Source: Zootoca vivipara (Eukaryota). Taken from it: a DNA stretch of 64,000 nt. A program made the position numbers and the translations under genes. The DNA lies in contig NC_083285.1 of assembly GCF_963506605.1 (NCBI RefSeq), positions 69,626,001-69,690,000 of the forward strand, read 5' to 3'. The notes under the pieces were generated by a model, which was not told where the DNA came from, searched no databases, and saw only the letters and a program-made list of their open reading frames with translations. Positions 19,428-31,400 of the stretch are shown here, one piece after another (position 1 is the first letter of the stretch; each line of letters opens with the position of its first letter).

Positions 19428-19826
19428 TTATGCATTAAGTTAACTGCAGTACTTGTTCTGGGCAACGTGGCTGCAGTTCTCACTCAGGTCCACAACATGC
19501 AAATGATGGATTGAGAGTGCTGTTCACGGATTGGGTAGCTAGGGGGAGTTTGTTACTGTTGCAAATTACTGAATACTATATAAGACAGTCGGCTAACCAG
19601 TGTTTCCCAACCTTGTGCCTCCAGCTGTTTTTGGACTACAACTCCCATCATCCCTAGCTAGCAAGACCTTGGTCAGGAATGATGGGAATTGTAGTCCGAA
19701 AACAGCTGCAGGCACAAGGTTGGGAAAAACTGGGCTAAGCTACTGTTCAGTCTGGACTCAGAGCTAGAATAAAGAGCTGGCTGTTTTGAGAGCTGTGTCT
19801 TCATCCTTCTTAGCCACTATTCAACA
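19428..19826 (+). mobile_element. Solo LTR, 5' end clipped, MITE inserted
   Basis: Paralog of 9663-9894. Confidence 0.8.
19598..19732. mobile_element. hAT-like MITE (135 bp palindrome)
   Basis: TIRs CAGTGTTTCCCAACCTTGTGCCT / AGGCACAAGGTTGGGAAAAACTG. Flanking GGCTAA is duplicated. Absent from the other LTR copies. Confidence 0.85.
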
Positions 19827-24028: not shown

Positions 24029-24948
24029 GAGCGGGGCTTTTCTGGGATGTGCCGCCTGCGCGAGCTAAGTGCGCATTGCAGCCAGGCTGGTGGCAAGTTT
24101 GCACTCAGGGTCACTGTGGAATAGGGAGGACTGAATGTATTGGGGGTGGGAAGGGTGGGGGGGTTGTGTGTGTGTGCGGTATGTGTGTGGAGAGAGATGT
24201 GGTGGTCAAGCCACTCCGGCTCCAGCCTCTTATCAAAAGGTTGCTGTGGATCCCGTTTCCCTAAGCAACACCCAATAAAAGCCTCCATAAAAAATAAAAA
24301 TAAAATAAAAGCACAGCCGAGAGAGGGGCAGACGCAGACGGCTTTCTCTCCCCTTCGCCCCAAATGCTTTAATTTCCCCTCAAACGCGGCCTGTCTGGAC
24401 GGAGGAATCGAGGCTCTCGTTCGCTCGCTCGGCTTTGTGGGCGTTGTAGTTTCCCTTTCCCTCCTCCCTGCGCGGTATTAGAGACGGCTGTGTCGGGACG
24501 GGGGGTGGGTGGGCCGTGGCGGGCCAGGAGCGTGTCCTGCTCAGCTGTGTGTGTGCGTGTGTGTGTAAGAGAGAGAGAGCGCGAGCGCGCGCGAAGGGAA
24601 AAAGCAGCAGCCGTGAGAGGGGAAAGTTGCGGCTGCGTTTCCCTCCAGTGACTGCCTGAGATGGTTTGCTGTGGCGACGGGCGGGCGGTTTGTGTGTGTG
24701 TGTGTGCGCGAGAGAGAGAGAGAGAGAAGCGCACGGGTCTATCCCGCAGCCTCCTCCTTCTCGCACTGCTGCTTAGAAGCGAGTGGTTGGCGACCGCAAA
24801 CGGTAGGCAGAAGGGTTGGGGGGAGAGAGCGCGCGCCTGCGTTCCAAGTCTCTGGTCCAATCCCTGTATCCCTGGGGTACATGCGCAGTACCCCAGGGAC
24901 ACACGGGACAACTGGACGCAGGGACAACTTGGACATTATTATATAGGA
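23808..24948 (-). mobile_element. Non-autonomous Helitron (paralogous copy)
   Basis: Same termini, hairpin and A|T site as 566-1716. Confidence 0.92.
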
Positions 24949-25128
24949 TGTGGGACATGTTCCTCTCAGAATCCACTCTTTTCTTCACAGCAATGAACTC
25001 AGCAGGAAATCAGTCTTAAAAGCATGATGTGTATGTGAAGTTCTTGTGTTTATATGTAAAACTGAACAGTAATGAAATATTGAAGGCAATGTCTCACAAT
25101 AGGGAGTATAATTTTAGATGTAAGATAC

Positions 25129-25556
25129 TGTCACAGTGGCCTGAGTGGACTACTTCAGAGTAACGACGCTACGCAGCTCTGCATTTTATTCTTTTATTGG
25201 TGCTGCGTATTTACAGTGCTCAAGTCATTGCTATTTACACGGAGCGATGTTGTCAGTCGGTTTCAGAACCTCCTAATGGCTTTTGGCGCGTCTTTCTCCA
25301 ACACAAAAGCTTTGGCAGACCCATCCTCTTGCCCCTCCTCTTCCTGCGTAATTCTGGAGTTGGAGGGATGGGTCTTCCCCCCTTGCTTGCCCCTTCCTGT
25401 CCCACCTGGGACCCTGGCTCCTCTACCTTGCCTGAGCCTCGGACACGACTTCCTGCTTCCCCACTGGAATCGGAACTCTCCCTGCTTTCCCCTTTGCTCG
25501 GGGACGGGCTTGAACTCAGGAGGGGAGGGACTTCGCGATATCCCCTGTCCCTCACA
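25129..25556 (-). repeat. 3' LTR of the Gypsy element
   Basis: No differences seen by eye from 30514-30941. Purine-rich PPT (minus strand GGGAGGGGGGTGGA) abuts it at 25557-25570. Confidence 0.95.
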
Positions 25557-28500
25557 TCCACCCCCCTCCCAAGCTCTCCTTCACCCCTCCCCAGGCCCCC
25601 CCCATGTGTCGGTGACGACTGGAAGCCTAAGAACTCAGTGCTCTCCGAGCCCGTTGGTGTGAATACCTCCCCCCAGTCCTGCGAGCCCCCCCCTTCCGCC
25701 TGGGCGGACGGGAATCCCAAAAAGTCCGTGGCGTCAGAGCTGGTGGGGGTAAAAACGTTCTGCCAATCTGCTCCTTCCTCAGACTGGGTGGATCTCGGTG
25801 ACACCCATACCTCATCCTCTGGTTCCTCAAACTCCGCTTCCCAGCGCCATGGTGAGCTGCTCTCCCGTGCCTCCTCCTCCTCCCCCTCCCTTTCCATGTG
25901 CCAGGGCTTGGGTCTGTGGGGAAAGAGGGCGTGAAATTCTTCCACCAAGAATTCCTCCTGTATCTGAGTGGCTGGGACCCATTCATTCTGGGACGGTGGA
26001 GCATCCTCCCATGCCATGAGGTACTCCAGTCCCCCCACCCCCCACCTTGAATCCAGGATGGCCGTGGCCTCATTGAGTTGCTCCCTGCCTTCCCTCTCCC
26101 CCCCTCCCTCGGGGGTTTGTTCGCTGTCTCGGAGCCTGCTGCTTTCCCTGTACGGCGACAGCAGCGATCTATGAAACACTGGATGCACCCTCATGTCCTC
26201 TGGCAGTGCCAGCCTGTATGCCACCGGGTTTACCTGTTGCGTGACCGTGAAGGGGCCCAGCCTTTTGGGTGCCAGCTTTTTGCACCTCCCTCTGGTGGGA
26301 AGGCCCTCCGAGGACAACCACACCTTGTCCCCCACCCTGATGACCTCCCCTTGTCGCCTGTGGCGATCTGCCCCCTTTTTGTACGCTTCCTTGGCCCTCT
26401 CCAAGTGTTCTCTGAGCTGCTGGTGCACCGTCTCCAGTTCCTCTGCCCAATCCTCAGCCTGTGGGCCCTCCTCCTCCTCCTCCTCCCTCTCCCTCTCTGG
26501 GAAAGATCTGAGGTCGCGCCCGTAATTGGCCTTAAAGGGCGACACCCCTGTGGAGACGTGCACTGCATTGTTGTAGGCAAATTCTGCTAGTGGCAAGCGA
26601 TCCACCCAGTCCGTTTGCCGCTGGCTGACGTAGCATCTCAGGTACTGCTGCAGAATGGCGTTGACCCTCTCCGCTTGTCCGTTGGTCTGCGGGTGTCTAG
26701 CCGTCGACAAGCTGACCTCCACCTGCAGGAGGTTCATGAGCCGCCGCCAGAACCTGGAAACAAATTGGCGGCCACGATCCGAAATAACCCTTAAAGGTAA
26801 TCCATGCAGTCTGAAAATGTGATCAACAAACAGTTTGGCTGTCTCTTCTGCCGAGACTGCCCTGGCACACGGTATAAAGTGACACATTTTGGACATAAGG
26901 TCCACCACCACCAACACTGCAGTCTTACCCCTGGACGAAGGCAGATCTGTGATGAAGTCCATGGACACCACTTCCCACGGCCTGTGTGGTGTGGCTAAGG
27001 GCTCCAGCAACCCTGGTGGCGCTGCTCTGACCACCTTCGCCCGCTGGCAGGTGGTACAGCCCCTTACATAGTCTCGAACATCTTCCCGCACCCCTGGCCA
27101 CCAGAAGTGTCTCATGACTAGGTGAGCGGTTTTGTCCCTTCCAAAATGCCCCGCTGTAGGGTTGTCGTGCATCTGCTTGAGGACCGTACGTCGAAGCTGG
27201 GTGGTGGGCAGGTACAGCGCACCCTTGTAGAAAAGCAGCCCTCTGCGTTCTGCAAAGTCTTTTGCCTGCTCCCTCCCCCCTCTCAGTTCTCTGAAGATGC
27301 GGTTGGCAAATTCATCCGCTGCCGTCAGAGCTGTGAGTTCTGCCTCGCTCACCACAGCTGCTCCGCAGGACCATGCCGACGGGGGGAAAATGTGCCTTGG
27401 GGCTGGTGGCGCCTCCTCCTCCATGTACTCTGGCTTGCGGGAGAGGGCATCCGCCCTGACATTCTGCTCCCCCGGGATGTAGTGGATGGAGAAGTTGAAG
27501 TTCGAGAAGAACTCTGCCCACCGTATCTGCCGCTGGTTGAGCACCCTGGCAGTTCTCCAGAACTCCAGGTTCTTGTGGTCTGTGCACACCTGGATGGGGT
27601 GCTTTGCGCCCACCAGGAAGTGTCGCCAGTGCTGGAACGCAGCGTAGATCGCAAGAAGTTCCCTATCAAACACTGTGTAGTTGCGTTCAGGCTGTGTCAG
27701 CTTCCTGGAGAAGAAGGCACAGGGTCTCCACTCCCTGTTGGCGTCCAGTTGCAACAAAATTGCGCCCACAGCTTTTTCAGAAGCATCTGTCTCAATGCGT
27801 AGGGGCGCGTCCTGCACCACATGGAATAGGTTTTGGTCTGAGGCGAACACTCTCTTGAGGCTTTCGAACGCTGCTTGCGCCTCTGGTGTCCACTTGAACT
27901 TCTGCTTGCCTCTCAGGCAGTCCGTGATGGGAGCCGTAACGCGAGAGAAGTTCTTGATGAACTTCCTGTAGAAGTTAGCGAAGCCTAGTAGGCGTTGGGC
28001 ATCTTTGCGCGTCCTGGGGCTGTGCCAGTCCAGGATGGCCTGCACCTTGTCCTTGTCCATCGCCAGCCCCTTGTCTGACAGCTTGTAGCCCAGGAAGTCC
28101 ACCTCTTTGGTGTGAAACTTGCACTTCTCCAGCTTCACATACAGGTGGTTCTCCTTCAGGCGTTGCAACACCTCTCTGACATCTTTCACATGCTGCACTG
28201 GGTCATTCGAGTAGATAAGGATGTCATCTAGGAAGACCAAGCATTTCCTGAAGAGGAGGGACCCCAGGACGTGGTGCATGAAGGCCTGGAAGCATGCTGA
28301 GCCCCCTTGCAAACCGAAGGGCATCACCAGATATTCAAAAGAGCCCAGAGGCGTGAACATCGTGGTTTTCCATTCATCTCCTTCCCGGATCCTGATCAAG
28401 TTGTACGCCCCCCTTAGGTCCAGCTTGGTGAAAATCTTGCCCCTGCGTGCCGCTGTCAGGAGATCATCCACTCTGGGCATGGGGAAAGCCACTGGCTCTG

Positions 28501-29380
28501 TCACCGAATTCAGCCGTCTAAAGTCCACCACAAGACGGCGCTGTTGCGTGTCTTTCTTGTCCACCCAGAAGACCGGGCTGCCCCCTGCTGCCTTGCTTTC
28601 CCTTATGAACCCCCGCTTGAGGTTCTTGTCGATGAAAGCGCGCAGATCCTCCAGCTCCTGGTCTGACATGGCGTACAGCTTGGCTGGGGGTATCGTAGCC
28701 CCTGGCACCAGGTTGATCTGGCAGTCAAAAGGCCTGTGCGGGGGTAGGTGGTCGGACTCCGCTTCGCTGAAGACCTCCTGCAGGTCCCAGTACTGCTTGG
28801 GTATTGCCTCACCCCCTTTGATATGCATGGTGGCCACCGTGGCTATTGGAGGCCCCTCCCCTGGTTGGTGCTGCATGCAATGTTCCAGACAAAAGTCCGA
28901 CCCAAACGTGATGCACCTCTGGTGCCAACTGATGGAGGGGTCGTGGCGCGCCAGCCAGCTCATGCCCAAGACGATGGGGGGGTCTGAGATGGTGGTGACG
29001 TTGAACGCCAGTGTCTCTGAGTGCCTTCCCACCGTCATTCTCATGGGGGGGGTTTGATGTGTGATGGCCCCTCCCAGCAGCTCCCTGCCGTCAATGGTTG
29101 CCACGTGCAGAGGAAAATCCAACTGCAAAAGCTGGATTTGGTGCTCTTCTGCAAAGCTTCTCGAGAAGAAGTTGGCGGACGCCCCACTGTCAATTAAGGC
29201 AAGGACTGTCAGGGGATAGCCATTTGGGAGCGTTAGCGTCACTTCTAGAACCACTCCTGCTCTGGGAGGGGTGGGCTGGCTCTGCACCTCTCTGTGCGGG
29301 TGGGCGGGCTGGGGCTGTTGTCTGCTGACTGTGCCTGGCTGCTGCCCCTTGTCTCCTGCAGCCAGGCTTTCCCGTTTCCC
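25253..29380 (-). CDS. pol: Pol (protease, RT, RNase H, integrase, chromodomain, acidic tail), entered by -1 frameshift
   Basis: LIDSGA; FLDDILIYS; ETDAS; HDNPTAGH..CTTC; DFITDL/SDRG/ERVN; GPF; chromo-like ILDSR..EYLMAWED..NEWV. The frame is open from the slippery site. Confidence 0.95.
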   Translation of the reverse strand, partial: GKRESLAAGDKGQQPGTVSRQQPQPAHPHREVQSQPTPPRAGVVLEVTLTLPNGYPLTVLALIDSGASANFFSRSFAEEHQIQLLQLDFPLHVATIDGRELLGGAITHQTPPMRMTVGRHSETLAFNVTTISDPPIVLGMSWLARHDPSISWHQRCITFGSDFCLEHCMQHQPGEGPPIATVATMHIKGGEAIPKQYWDLQEVFSEAESDHLPPHRPFDCQINLVPGATIPPAKLYAMSDQELEDLRAFIDKNLKRGFIRESKAAGGSPVFWVDKKDTQQRRLVVDFRRLNSVTEPVAFPMPRVDDLLTAARRGKIFTKLDLRGAYNLIRIREGDEWKTTMFTPLGSFEYLVMPFGLQGGSACFQAFMHHVLGSLLFRKCLVFLDDILIYSNDPVQHVKDVREVLQRLKENHLYVKLEKCKFHTKEVDFLGYKLSDKGLAMDKDKVQAILDWHSPRTRKDAQRLLGFANFYRKFIKNFSRVTAPITDCLRGKQKFKWTPEAQAAFESLKRVFASDQNLFHVVQDAPLRIETDASEKAVGAILLQLDANREWRPCAFFSRKLTQPERNYTVFDRELLAIYAAFQHWRHFLVGAKHPIQVCTDHKNLEFWRTARVLNQRQIRWAEFFSNFNFSIHYIPGEQNVRADALSRKPEYMEEEAPPAPRHIFPPSAWSCGAAVVSEAELTALTAADEFANRIFRELRGGREQAKDFAERRGLLFYKGALYLPTTQLRRTVLKQMHDNPTAGHFGRDKTAHLVMRHFWWPGVREDVRDYVRGCTTCQRAKVVRAAPPGLLEPLATPHRPWEVVSMDFITDLPSSRGKTAVLVVVDLMSKMCHFIPCARAVSAEETAKLFVDHIFRLHGLPLRVISDRGRQFVSRFWRRLMNLLQVEVSLSTARHPQTNGQAERVNAILQQYLRCYVSQRQTDWVDRLPLAEFAYNNAVHVSTGVSPFKANYGRDLRSFPEREREEEEEEGPQAEDWAEELETVHQQLREHLERAKEAYKKGADRHRRQGEVIRVGDKVWLSSEGLPTRGRCKKLAPKRLGPFTVTQQVNPVAYRLALPEDMRVHPVFHRSLLSPYRESSRLRDSEQTPEGGGEREGREQLNEATAILDSRWGVGGLEYLMAWEDAPPSQNEWVPATQIQEEFLVEEFHALFPHRPKPWHMEREGEEEEARESSSPWRWEAEFEEPEDEVWVSPRSTQSEEGADWQNVFTPTSSDATDFLGFPSAQAEGGGSQDWGEVFTPTGSESTEFLGFQSSPTHGGGLGRGEGELGRGVDVRDRGYREVPPLLSSSPSPSKGESRESSDSSGEAGSRVRGSGKVEEPGSQVGQEGASKGGRPIPPTPELRRKRRGKRMGLPKLLCWRKTRQKPLGGSETD

Positions 29381-30471
29381 TGCTGTGGTGCTGCGTCAGT
29401 GGGGGAGGGCACCACCGTTCCCGCCTTTCCTTGCCACTCCCTGCGATGTGGGCAGTCTCTGACGAGATGCTGGGGTGAGTTGCAGAGAAAGCAATTCCCG
29501 CCCCTTCCCTCCTTGCGTCTTGGCGCCGCTGGGGTTTGAAAAGCCCGCGCGCGCGCGCTATCAATCTGCAAGGGCTCCTGGTCCTGGCTGGCTCCAGGCG
29601 TGGCTTGAAAGGGTTGTTGAGGGAGTGGCTTCTCCTGCGACCGTGGGAACCAAGCCCGCTTTGCGCGCGTCGCTTGCTTGTCGTTCCACCGGGATTCCTG
29701 CCTCACCCCCACCGCCAGAGCTGCTTTGCTCAGCTGATCCATAGTACTGGGCTTTGGACCTCTCGAGAGTTCATCCTTCACCTCCTCGCTCAAACCCAAG
29801 TAAAACGCAGCTTGCATGGGAGGCGAATCCAAAACCCACCCCAGTCTGTGCACCAGCATGGTGAATTTCGCCCAATATGCGCGAACTGTCATATTTCCTT
29901 GGCGTAAATTATGCAGTTCCTCCTTAGTCTGGTCCAAATGACTATCGGACGAATACATCGTCCTCAAACCTTCTAGAAATTGTTGGACATTTTTCATGCA
30001 AGGATTCTTGGTTGCGATTAATGGTCTTAGCCACTCCCTGGCTGCTCCGGTGAGATGTTCCACAATAAACGCTACTCTGTGCTCATCATCGGGGAACTCA
30101 TTCTGGTGCAGCTCAAGAGCATACACGATCTCAGTCTCAAAGCCCTGAAACTCCTTCGGGTCTCCATTGAACTTGCTTACAAGGGTCCCTGCTCTCCTTC
30201 CTGGCAGCACTTGGACTTGGGGAGCCCCTCCCGCCTTGTTTTTCTCTGCATCCAGCTTGTTTTGGAGGTCTACCGCCACCGCCCTTAAATGCTGCTCTTT
30301 TTCCTGGAGCTCTCTCACCTGTTCCGCAAGTTGTAGCCGGTCGTCCTGGACCTTCTTAGTCTCCTCTTTAGCTGCCTTCAATTCTCCCTGCGCCTGCAGC
30401 GACAGCTGTTGCAGTTCTAGCTGGGCTTGCTCAGCGATCTGCCGCCACTTCTCCGCCTCGGACACGCTCAT
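29245..30471 (-). CDS. gag: Gag (PEG10/sushi-like): coiled coil, capsid and CCHC zinc knuckle
   Basis: First ATG at 30471 (MSVSEAEKW). Motifs KFNGDPKEFQGF, EPLQID and CFLCNSPQHLVRDC. Confidence 0.93.
   Translation of the reverse strand: MSVSEAEKWRQIAEQAQLELQQLSLQAQGELKAAKEETKKVQDDRLQLAEQVRELQEKEQHLRAVAVDLQNKLDAEKNKAGGAPQVQVLPGRRAGTLVSKFNGDPKEFQGFETEIVYALELHQNEFPDDEHRVAFIVEHLTGAAREWLRPLIATKNPCMKNVQQFLEGLRTMYSSDSHLDQTKEELHNLRQGNMTVRAYWAKFTMLVHRLGWVLDSPPMQAAFYLGLSEEVKDELSRGPKPSTMDQLSKAALAVGVRQESRWNDKQATRAKRAWFPRSQEKPLPQQPFQATPGASQDQEPLQIDSARARAFQTPAAPRRKEGRGGNCFLCNSPQHLVRDCPHRREWQGKAGTVVPSPTDAAPQQGNGKAWLQETRGSSQAQSADNSPSPPTRTERCRASPPLPEQEWF
29333..29380 (-). promoter_or_regulatory. -1 programmed ribosomal frameshift signal
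   Basis: G GGA AAC (29380-29374) in the correct gag phase, a 6-nt spacer, then a 10-bp stem GCCTGGCTGC/GCAGCCAGGC. Pol is in the -1 frame. Confidence 0.88.
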
Positions 30472-30478
30472 CCCGGCA

Positions 30479-30662
30479 ACTCCGAAGTAGCCCAAAAAGG
30501 ATTAGGAGGTTGCTGTCACAGTGGCCTGAGTGGACTACTTCAGAGTAACGACGCTACGCAGCTCTGCATTTTATTCTTTTATTGGTGCTGCGTATTTACA
30601 GTGCTCAAGTCATTGCTATTTACACGGAGCGATGTTGTCAGTCGGTTTCAGAACCTCCTAAT
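30479..30662 (-). promoter_or_regulatory. Self-priming PBS and U5-leader stem
   Basis: 11-nt inverted repeat at 30501-30511 and 30652-30662. 16-bp helix between 30479-30494 and 30531-30546. No TGG-type tRNA PBS. Confidence 0.8.
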
Positions 30663-30941
30663 GGCTTTTGGCGCGTCTTTCTCCAACACAAAAGCTTTGG
30701 CAGACCCATCCTCTTGCCCCTCCTCTTCCTGCGTAATTCTGGAGTTGGAGGGATGGGTCTTCCCCCCTTGCTTGCCCCTTCCTGTCCCACCTGGGACCCT
30801 GGCTCCTCTACCTTGCCTGAGCCTCGGACACGACTTCCTGCTTCCCCACTGGAATCGGAACTCTCCCTGCTTTCCCCTTTGCTCGGGGACGGGCTTGAAC
30901 TCAGGAGGGGAGGGACTTCGCGATATCCCCTGTCCCTCACA
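30514..30941 (-). repeat. 5' LTR of the Gypsy element
   Basis: TG...CA ends. Two minus-strand AATAAA signals around 30568-30584. Confidence 0.95.
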
Positions 30942-31400
30942 GATACCTTTTGATAGAGAGGGAAAATCTGAATTGGTGGTGGGGAGTGAGGATTAGGGCT
31001 GGGCGATATATTAATAGCTCGTCCATACCGGTTTCTAGACCACATCACGATAACCTTTGAAAAACAATTGATATGGCAATAAACCACGAATCACAGTGTG
31101 TGTTTCTAGGATGTACCTGGAAGCAGCCGGCAGAAAACTTTGCTTCGTGAAGCCCCTGCACATGCCCAGTTGCTGACTTCCCTCCCAGACGACAGGAAGC
31201 GAAACACACACCTCCATTGCCCTGTGTCGTTCCAGCCTCTTTCCTCCCTTGCTCCCTTCTGCCGGTTTGTGTGCCTGACCTAGATATACTGTGGGTGTAT
31301 TTTTTTACTGCCAAAACTGGATTTTGTGCCTCACTGGGAACCCAATGAGAACTGTATGCTTTGAACCCTCAGTAAACTATAACTGAAGAAGTCCTGCTTC

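Follow-up and report, generated by a model that had tools for sequence, protein, structure and literature searches.

Recurrent mirrored mutations in a predicted primer and its binding site point to self-priming of a chromodomain Ty3/Gypsy retrotransposon in Zootoca vivipara

In the fission-yeast retrotransposon Tf1, the RNA's first 11 bases are reported to pair with the primer-binding site, and RNase H to cut between bases 11 and 12 (PMC7175516). A three-duplex 'pretzel' structure is described as required for this process (bioRxiv 2022.12.06.519325), and the Tf1 primer is reported to be copied into DNA at the end of the cDNA (PMC11042837). Self-priming has been proposed for the Tf1/sushi group, with Butler et al. 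2001 as the source cited (PMC6317226, PMC4600332, bioRxiv 2022.12.06.519325), and a V-clade is reported to have members in fish, amphibians, and amniotes (PMC2774666). An initial annotation of the DNA analysed here had invoked both Tf1 priming by the first 11 nt and its proposed extension to the Tf1/sushi group, and both agree with what PMC7175516 and the citing papers report. According to these sources, experiments established self-priming in fission yeast, and for vertebrate Tf1/sushi elements it has been a sequence-based inference since 2001. Self-priming is the textbook expectation for the Tf1/sushi group, vertebrates included, and the new part of this work is the recurrence of mirrored mutations, not the mechanism. 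In the open-licence literature, we found neither a vertebrate self-priming experiment nor a population-level test by recurrent mirrored mutation.

Here, we analysed a 64,000-nucleotide stretch of Zootoca vivipara DNA (the window), a tandem array of C2H2 zinc-finger genes with duplicated units up to 99% alike and zinc-finger exons of about 20 fingers at 4793, 12918, 21534, 35961, 44561, 52710, and 60669. Its minus strand carries a 5.8-kb LTR element, a chromodomain Ty3/Gypsy retrotransposon. The 5' LTR (30514..30941, read 30941-30514) and the 3' LTR (25129..25556, read 25556-25129) are identical, each 428 bp long with TG...CA ends, and are flanked by the target-site duplication GTATC (30942..30946 on the 5' side and 25124..25128 on the 3' side, minus strand). 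The element is present at one of the eight paralogous sites of the window, and because the seven empty ones carry GTATC in a single copy, both element ends and the 5-bp target duplication are fixed. The insertion lies about 680 bp from an ACTACAA..CCCA motif at 24450; motifs of this kind, which we take to be ZNF143-type promoter sites, occur at 24450, 38898, 14916, and 1218 (-), and also at 19635, 19695, 33990, and 34050.

The gag ORF (29245..30471, minus strand, ATG at 30471) encodes 408 aa with a capsid domain and a CCHC knuckle (Pfam Retrotrans_gag, Ty3_capsid, and DUF4939), and is overlapped in the -1 frame by pol (25253..29395, minus strand). The latter is open over 1380 codons from stop to stop and encodes protease, reverse transcriptase (RT), RNase H, integrase, SH3, and a chromodomain, matching Pfam RVP_2, RVT_1, RT_RNaseH, rve, SH3_Tf2-1, and Chromo, the last with 27.2 bits against a cut-off of 25.1. 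About 225 codons of the pol frame beyond the chromodomain form an acidic tail, and the frame crosses the polypurine tract (25557..25570, minus strand), which adjoins the 3' LTR, and then about 300 nt of the 3' LTR itself (25253-25556, minus strand). With Gag and Pol open and the LTRs identical, the element is intact, as the initial annotation had read it, recently inserted, and very young. Its label as a lizard Gypsy element also fits the top protein matches, which were 95% identical for Gag, from Zootoca vivipara, and 70% for Pol among single-copy matches, from Podarcis muralis. The Zootoca vivipara protein matching Gag is annotated as lysophospholipase-like protein 1 isoform X1, a label that probably reflects mis-annotation or a chimeric gene model.

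In a quick tree of 33 rows, 25 of them fungal or vertebrate and compared with plant and algal ones, built without Tf1 and sushi-ichi themselves and without two loci that have no RT (L102 and L129), the RT-RNase H segment grouped with fungal and vertebrate chromoviruses, apart from the plant and algal rows (SH-aLRT 99). The nearest named hosts of relatives were Podarcis, Anolis, Gekko, frogs, and fish. With its PR-RT-RNase H-IN order and C-terminal chromodomain, the element belongs to the chromovirus branch of Ty3/Gypsy.

The 5' LTR is followed on the minus strand by a 2-nt GC spacer (30512..30513) and the primer-binding site AACCTCCTAAT (30501..30511), confirming the earlier reading of GC-AACCTCCTAAT without TGG; neither a TGG tRNA-type site nor any other primer site was found after the LTR. 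The exact 11-nt complement of the site, ATTAGGAGGTT, lies within the LTR on the same strand (30652..30662, read 30662-30652), at a distance of 149 nt from the LTR end and upstream of both AATAAA polyadenylation signals (30583-30578 and 30575-30570, minus strand), where the initial annotation had placed it, and recurs in the 3' LTR at 25277-25267. It is the predicted self-primer, the first 11 nt of the RNA. The match is flanked by mismatches at both ends, and the chance of such a complement for a composition-matched 11-mer in the LTR is p about 7e-5, or 3.6e-4 allowing five offsets; at control offsets downstream, none of 200 reached 11 matches and the best had 6.

Against 31 tRNA genes of 10 anticodon types, a partial set, the site matched over 6 nt at most, in keeping with the tRNA-independence claimed earlier, and a conserved tRNA primer is excluded because primer-site sequences vary. 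The partial coverage of that comparison, together with the half-tRNA priming reported in Ty1/copia lineages (PMC6317226), leaves some room for a primer of host origin, either an internal fragment of a tRNA or some other RNA, with the LTR match being incidental. We consider this extremely improbable, given the 6-nt ceiling and a chance of an LTR match of about 1e-4 per family. Moreover, a host primer would keep the site constant, whereas the site follows the LTR through about ten separate changes, as described below.

A second duplex, the U5-leader helix of the initial annotation, joins a U5 arm (30531..30546) to a leader arm (30479..30494, both minus strand). Folding bore out its 16 bp and its preference for the transcribed strand: all 16 positions paired, two as U-G, with an energy of -25.5 kcal/mol for the sense strand vs -17.0 kcal/mol for the antisense strand, that is, 8.5 kcal/mol better on the strand that is transcribed and on which alone the two G:U pairs form. 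Across 32 aligned copies, 97.5% of cells were paired. The corresponding duplex outperformed shuffles in families A, F, and G and in one B copy, and did not do so in families C2, D, and E or in the second B copy. The U5-leader helix and the primer/site helix cross each other in a pseudoknot topology, so a nested fold shows one helix at a time, and the alternative nested folds were near equal (-48.6 vs -48.8 kcal/mol). A third duplex, upstream of the site, was limited to a 3-bp CUG/CAG pairing (97.9% paired, no covariation), and no longer version beat shuffles in any of the 32 copies. Two other candidates were discarded, namely covariation of U5 position 30527 with the site, which breaks in L092, L119, and L127, and a stem enclosing both AATAAA signals (87% paired), whose covariation was not above shuffles.

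The fold bears on whether the primer acts in cis. The same 11-mer could be supplied in trans, for instance by a short capped transcript or a fragment of the second packaged RNA, without any fold-back and RNase H cut in cis. Under such priming, the complementarity and the mirrored mutations are expected to be no different, and the pseudoknot-like shape that the crossing helices impose on a cis fold would not be needed; the weakness of the third Tf1 duplex in the window element also speaks for it. However, copy by copy the primer matches its own site, rare variants in a set of about 1,600 copies included, which fits a primer drawn from the same RNA or locus, and Tf1 itself is reported to work in cis (PMC7175516). 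We therefore regard supply in trans as unlikely.

The family is large enough for the pairing to be followed from copy to copy. An exact 20-letter pattern covering the LTR end and the site retrieved 1,157 genomic copies with the primer site of the window element, and 455 copies with a different base at site position 8, which was G in 96 of the first 100 listed; in all, the genome holds about 1,600 full-length-type 5' ends of the family. Three primer-site matches spaced about 5.4 kb apart at G000:C2:16765332-16776119 suggest a tandem array of the element, and tandem copies of yeast Tf elements are reported to form by an integrase-independent route (PMC11042837).

The 30 top-ranking copies from a DNA search, at 99-100% identity, told nothing about covariation, and changes at the partner positions 30659 and 30504 were first seen in RNA reads from diverged copies. 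When 30 loci were chosen by a G in the site, each of them had C as the LTR partner. For this pair, all 60 T-site copies of a list-order sample were A:T and perfect over 11/11, and in the older subfamily 68 of 70 G-site copies, a sample that includes the 30 loci just mentioned, showed C at the partner position (C:G). Among these 70 copies, 65 were perfect, 3 were defective elsewhere, and 2 had no recognisable primer.

In a second pair, 30661/30502, site position 10 was G in six copies, all of which had C in the LTR. In the reverse direction, a search for C at the 30661 partner yielded 21 LTRs, of which six were 5' LTRs, all with a mirrored site, and five were the 3' LTRs of the same six copies, the remainder being solo or truncated. 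A single clade of the six copies was rejected by the AU test (p 2.7e-5; 58 rows, with both 11-mers omitted, as were L052 and L054 for their long branch in the first tree) and also on the primer-to-site loop alone (p 7e-44); with L124 included, the paired change at nt 2 required six changes on the tree. Since the six copies are scattered over a tree built without the 11-mers, neither descent nor block transfer explains the mirrored change. Further mirrored variants occurred in single copies, L094 (in both LTRs), L124, and L132.

We compared the two helices in an alignment of 32 copies (A2), which was enriched by choice for rare variants, mirrored and unmirrored. Two-sided changes were found in 7 of the 11 primer pairs, while in the U5-leader helix 1 of 16 pairs had changed on both sides and 6 on one. 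The paired fraction was reached by none of 500 shuffles, in rows that are related as well as enriched for variants. Unmirrored changes confined to the site numbered five, at position 9 in two copies and at position 3 in three. Three copies with a changed site keep the old LTR base, likely through CpG decay, and one of these three is in the alignment. Conversely, two copies have primer nt 11 changed in both LTRs and the site unchanged; an excess of strand-transfer errors at this nucleotide is unsupported, as no excess was seen in 130 copies. A genome pattern search found no site variants at positions 5 and 6, and an unpaired U5 control position had 20 variants, a count too rough for a rate comparison. 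Contigs of other organisms returned 8, 4, 0, and 616 records with no listed change in the 11-mers and were likewise uninformative on covariation. Overall, the two 11-mers covary strongly, which, along with the lack of a match beyond 6 nt among the 31 tRNA genes compared, supports the self-priming interpretation of the initial annotation.

The best reading of these data, and one that we hold to be very probable, is Tf1-type self-priming in which the site is re-copied from the primer in each cycle. In the proposed mechanism, the RNA would start at 30662 and its nt 1-11 would serve as the primer, folding onto the site, which the loop of the U5-leader helix would keep open. By analogy with Tf1, the element's RNase H would cut between nt 11 and 12, and RT would then extend from the released 3' end through GC, U5, and R. 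Plus-strand synthesis would re-copy the site from the attached primer, and a mutation in nt 1-11 would be transferred to the site in a single step; retroviral plus-strand sites are likewise reported to be copies of the primer (PMC7472051). Such re-copying would explain why changes in the primer pairs are almost exclusively perfect and mirrored, with no G-U intermediates, and why they contrast with the U5-leader helix, where changes are mostly one-sided and pass through G-U. We further think it likely that the genome records self-priming, with the site overwritten from the element's own RNA 5' end each cycle, in the six matched double changes, that is, in the same change occurring six separate times without intermediates at the site. 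A simple 50:50 resolution is at odds with the nt-2 change, for which some unmirrored 5' LTRs are predicted and 0 of 6 were found; the two copies in which both LTRs carry an nt-11 change that the site does not mirror indicate that the other resolution outcome does occur. The 0 of 6 could stem from biased repair or from selection for matched copies.

The 11-mer pair might instead be purely structural, acting in packaging, translation, or poly(A) control, or be an inverted repeat corrected by template switching, with the element primed in another way. Template switching is a known mutational process that corrects imperfect inverted repeats. Neither version, however, would fix the match at +2 in seven site sequences, and there is no other primer site after the LTR. 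Furthermore, the U5-leader inverted repeat, which is longer and closer, retains its G-U pairs uncorrected. We consequently judge a structural or template-switch origin very unlikely.

The seven site sequences emerged from diverged gag families of the same genome, found by a Pfam DUF4939 search in which 40 of 150 listed places were taken as 10-kb stretches. The 39 scored loci comprise 38 of these and the window element; L100 and L104 were left unscored for want of a located LTR end, and L128, whose apparent LTR is probably another repeat, was counted as a miss. At offset +2, 22 of the 39 loci matched their LTR over 11/11 and 12 over 10/11, and the other five had only 8-9 of 11. Besides the site of the window element there were six other site sequences (AACCTCC..., AATCCGGCACT, ATGACTCATCT, TTGCTGTGGC, TTGGACCCAAT, TTGCAGACACT, and TTGACTCAACT make up the full set of seven), each matching its own LTR at the same 2-nt offset, which is shared by every matching family; the RT domains of the seven groups, where found, were down to 52% identical. 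Across families, the distance from the LTR complement to the LTR end is 128 to 489 nt. The last two bases of every predicted primer are A/U (TT, AA, or AT) and the first is A in nearly all, which may reflect an RNase H cut preference and the initiator. In family B (L097-L100, L115, L116), many copies are short, with about 2.5-2.9 kb between LTR starts and tandem repeats inside the LTR, and are possibly non-autonomous derivatives; most of these short copies keep the self-complementary site, whose distance from the LTR end ranges over 266-489 nt in the family.

We infer a transcription start at 30662, the A of an initiator-like GCCATT (30660..30665, minus strand); the initiator consensus is BBCABW. 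In most families, the primer begins at an initiator-like or pyrimidine-purine step. Aligned on the primer's first base, 12 family representatives, not all independent because four come from the wider family of the window element, showed an A/T peak at -31 to -26, with A/T in 8-11 of 12, compared with mostly 2-7 of 12 elsewhere and isolated positions up to 10. In the related families, we interpret this peak, about 30 nt upstream of the primer, as a putative TATA-like box; at the corresponding position in the window copy (30688..30694, minus strand, -32 to -26 from 30662) the box is degenerate. The RNA data came from three raw runs, about 6% of each being read, with 252, 208, and 534 reads placed, mostly 90-95% alike and in U3, and many continuing into unlike flanks. 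The read ends, which cannot map starts, showed no pile-up at 30662, the nearest listed end being 30681 (5 molecules, one run). In one run, the depth drops at 30550-30570 and 8 molecules begin at 30566, a weak signal near the expected poly(A) site.

A canonical TATA box is absent upstream of 30662 in the window element's family, which would favour another layout, with the conserved TGTAAATA (about 30598-30591) as the TATA box, a start near 30565, and the 11-mer in U3, from where it would be cut from the RNA 3' end. TGTAAATA is invariant in the 32 aligned copies, and a model of the fish Sushi LTR reads an AT-rich stretch as a possible TATA box (PMC3601003). However, in the other families the distance from primer to LTR end ranges from 128 to 489 nt, yet the TATA-like box stays about 30 nt upstream of the primer, and the 11-nt match stops at the initiator-like A. 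The TGTA upstream of AATAAA also fits a poly(A) enhancer, and we consider a start near 30565 highly improbable. The longer CACTGTAAATA (30601-30591, minus strand), just upstream of AATAAA, is invariant in the 32 aligned copies as well, and is probably a poly(A) enhancer.

The family offers a population-level test of self-priming through independently recurring matched mutations, in which a copied helix and a selected helix are contrasted side by side. As a young family of >1,100 copies, it could allow the primer to be caught directly in lizard tissue, and its two subfamilies with different primers in one genome are natural material for doing so without engineering. If the genome does record the overwriting of the site in the six matched double changes, this would amount to genomic proof of self-priming in an amniote, with a primer sequence that drifts freely, as in the seven site sequences of one genome. 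It would also mean that these elements escape silencing by tRNA fragments, which is reported to act on tRNA-primed elements (PMC7472051): lacking a tRNA as primer, they would lie beyond its reach.

Among known systems, Tf1/Tf2 of Schizosaccharomyces pombe (also Tj1, Tosmo1-3, and Tcry1) come closest in what is described of them: like the window element, they are chromodomain Ty3/Gypsy elements whose 11-nt site is the complement of what are predicted to be the first 11 nt of the RNA, and in which a segment adjacent to the site forms a second duplex with part of the LTR. The traits of the Tf1/sushi group seen here include the RT placement, the lack of a tRNA-type site, a site of about 11 nt complementary to the LTR, and the 'pretzel' duplex of an LTR segment with the leader downstream of the site, present with 16 bp. 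The fission-yeast elements differ in being described without CCHC and with one ORF or an in-frame stop, whereas the Gag of the window element has a CCHC knuckle and its gag and pol overlap in the -1 frame. In addition, the Tf1 'pretzel' has three duplexes, two of which are clear in the window element, and priming is experimental in Tf1 and predicted in the window element.

The vertebrate Tf1/sushi elements are, like the window element, vertebrate chromoviruses with a gag-pol -1 overlap; the window family is lacertid, with its roughly 1,600 full-length-type 5' ends, no description of this lacertid family being found in the open-licence literature. A site complementary to the element's own LTR, and self-priming predicted from it, are also reported for the Tcn1 clade (Cryptococcus, mosses) and for TAR copia elements (PMC6317226), of which the former has different hosts and the latter belongs to Ty1/copia, unrelated to the window element. 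Finally, in tRNA-primed retroviruses and ERVs, the site lies 2-4 nt after the LTR and its plus-strand form is likewise reported to copy the primer (PMC7472051). There, copying restores a fixed tRNA sequence at the site; in the window element, the predicted primer is encoded by the element itself, so that the site can drift freely along with it.
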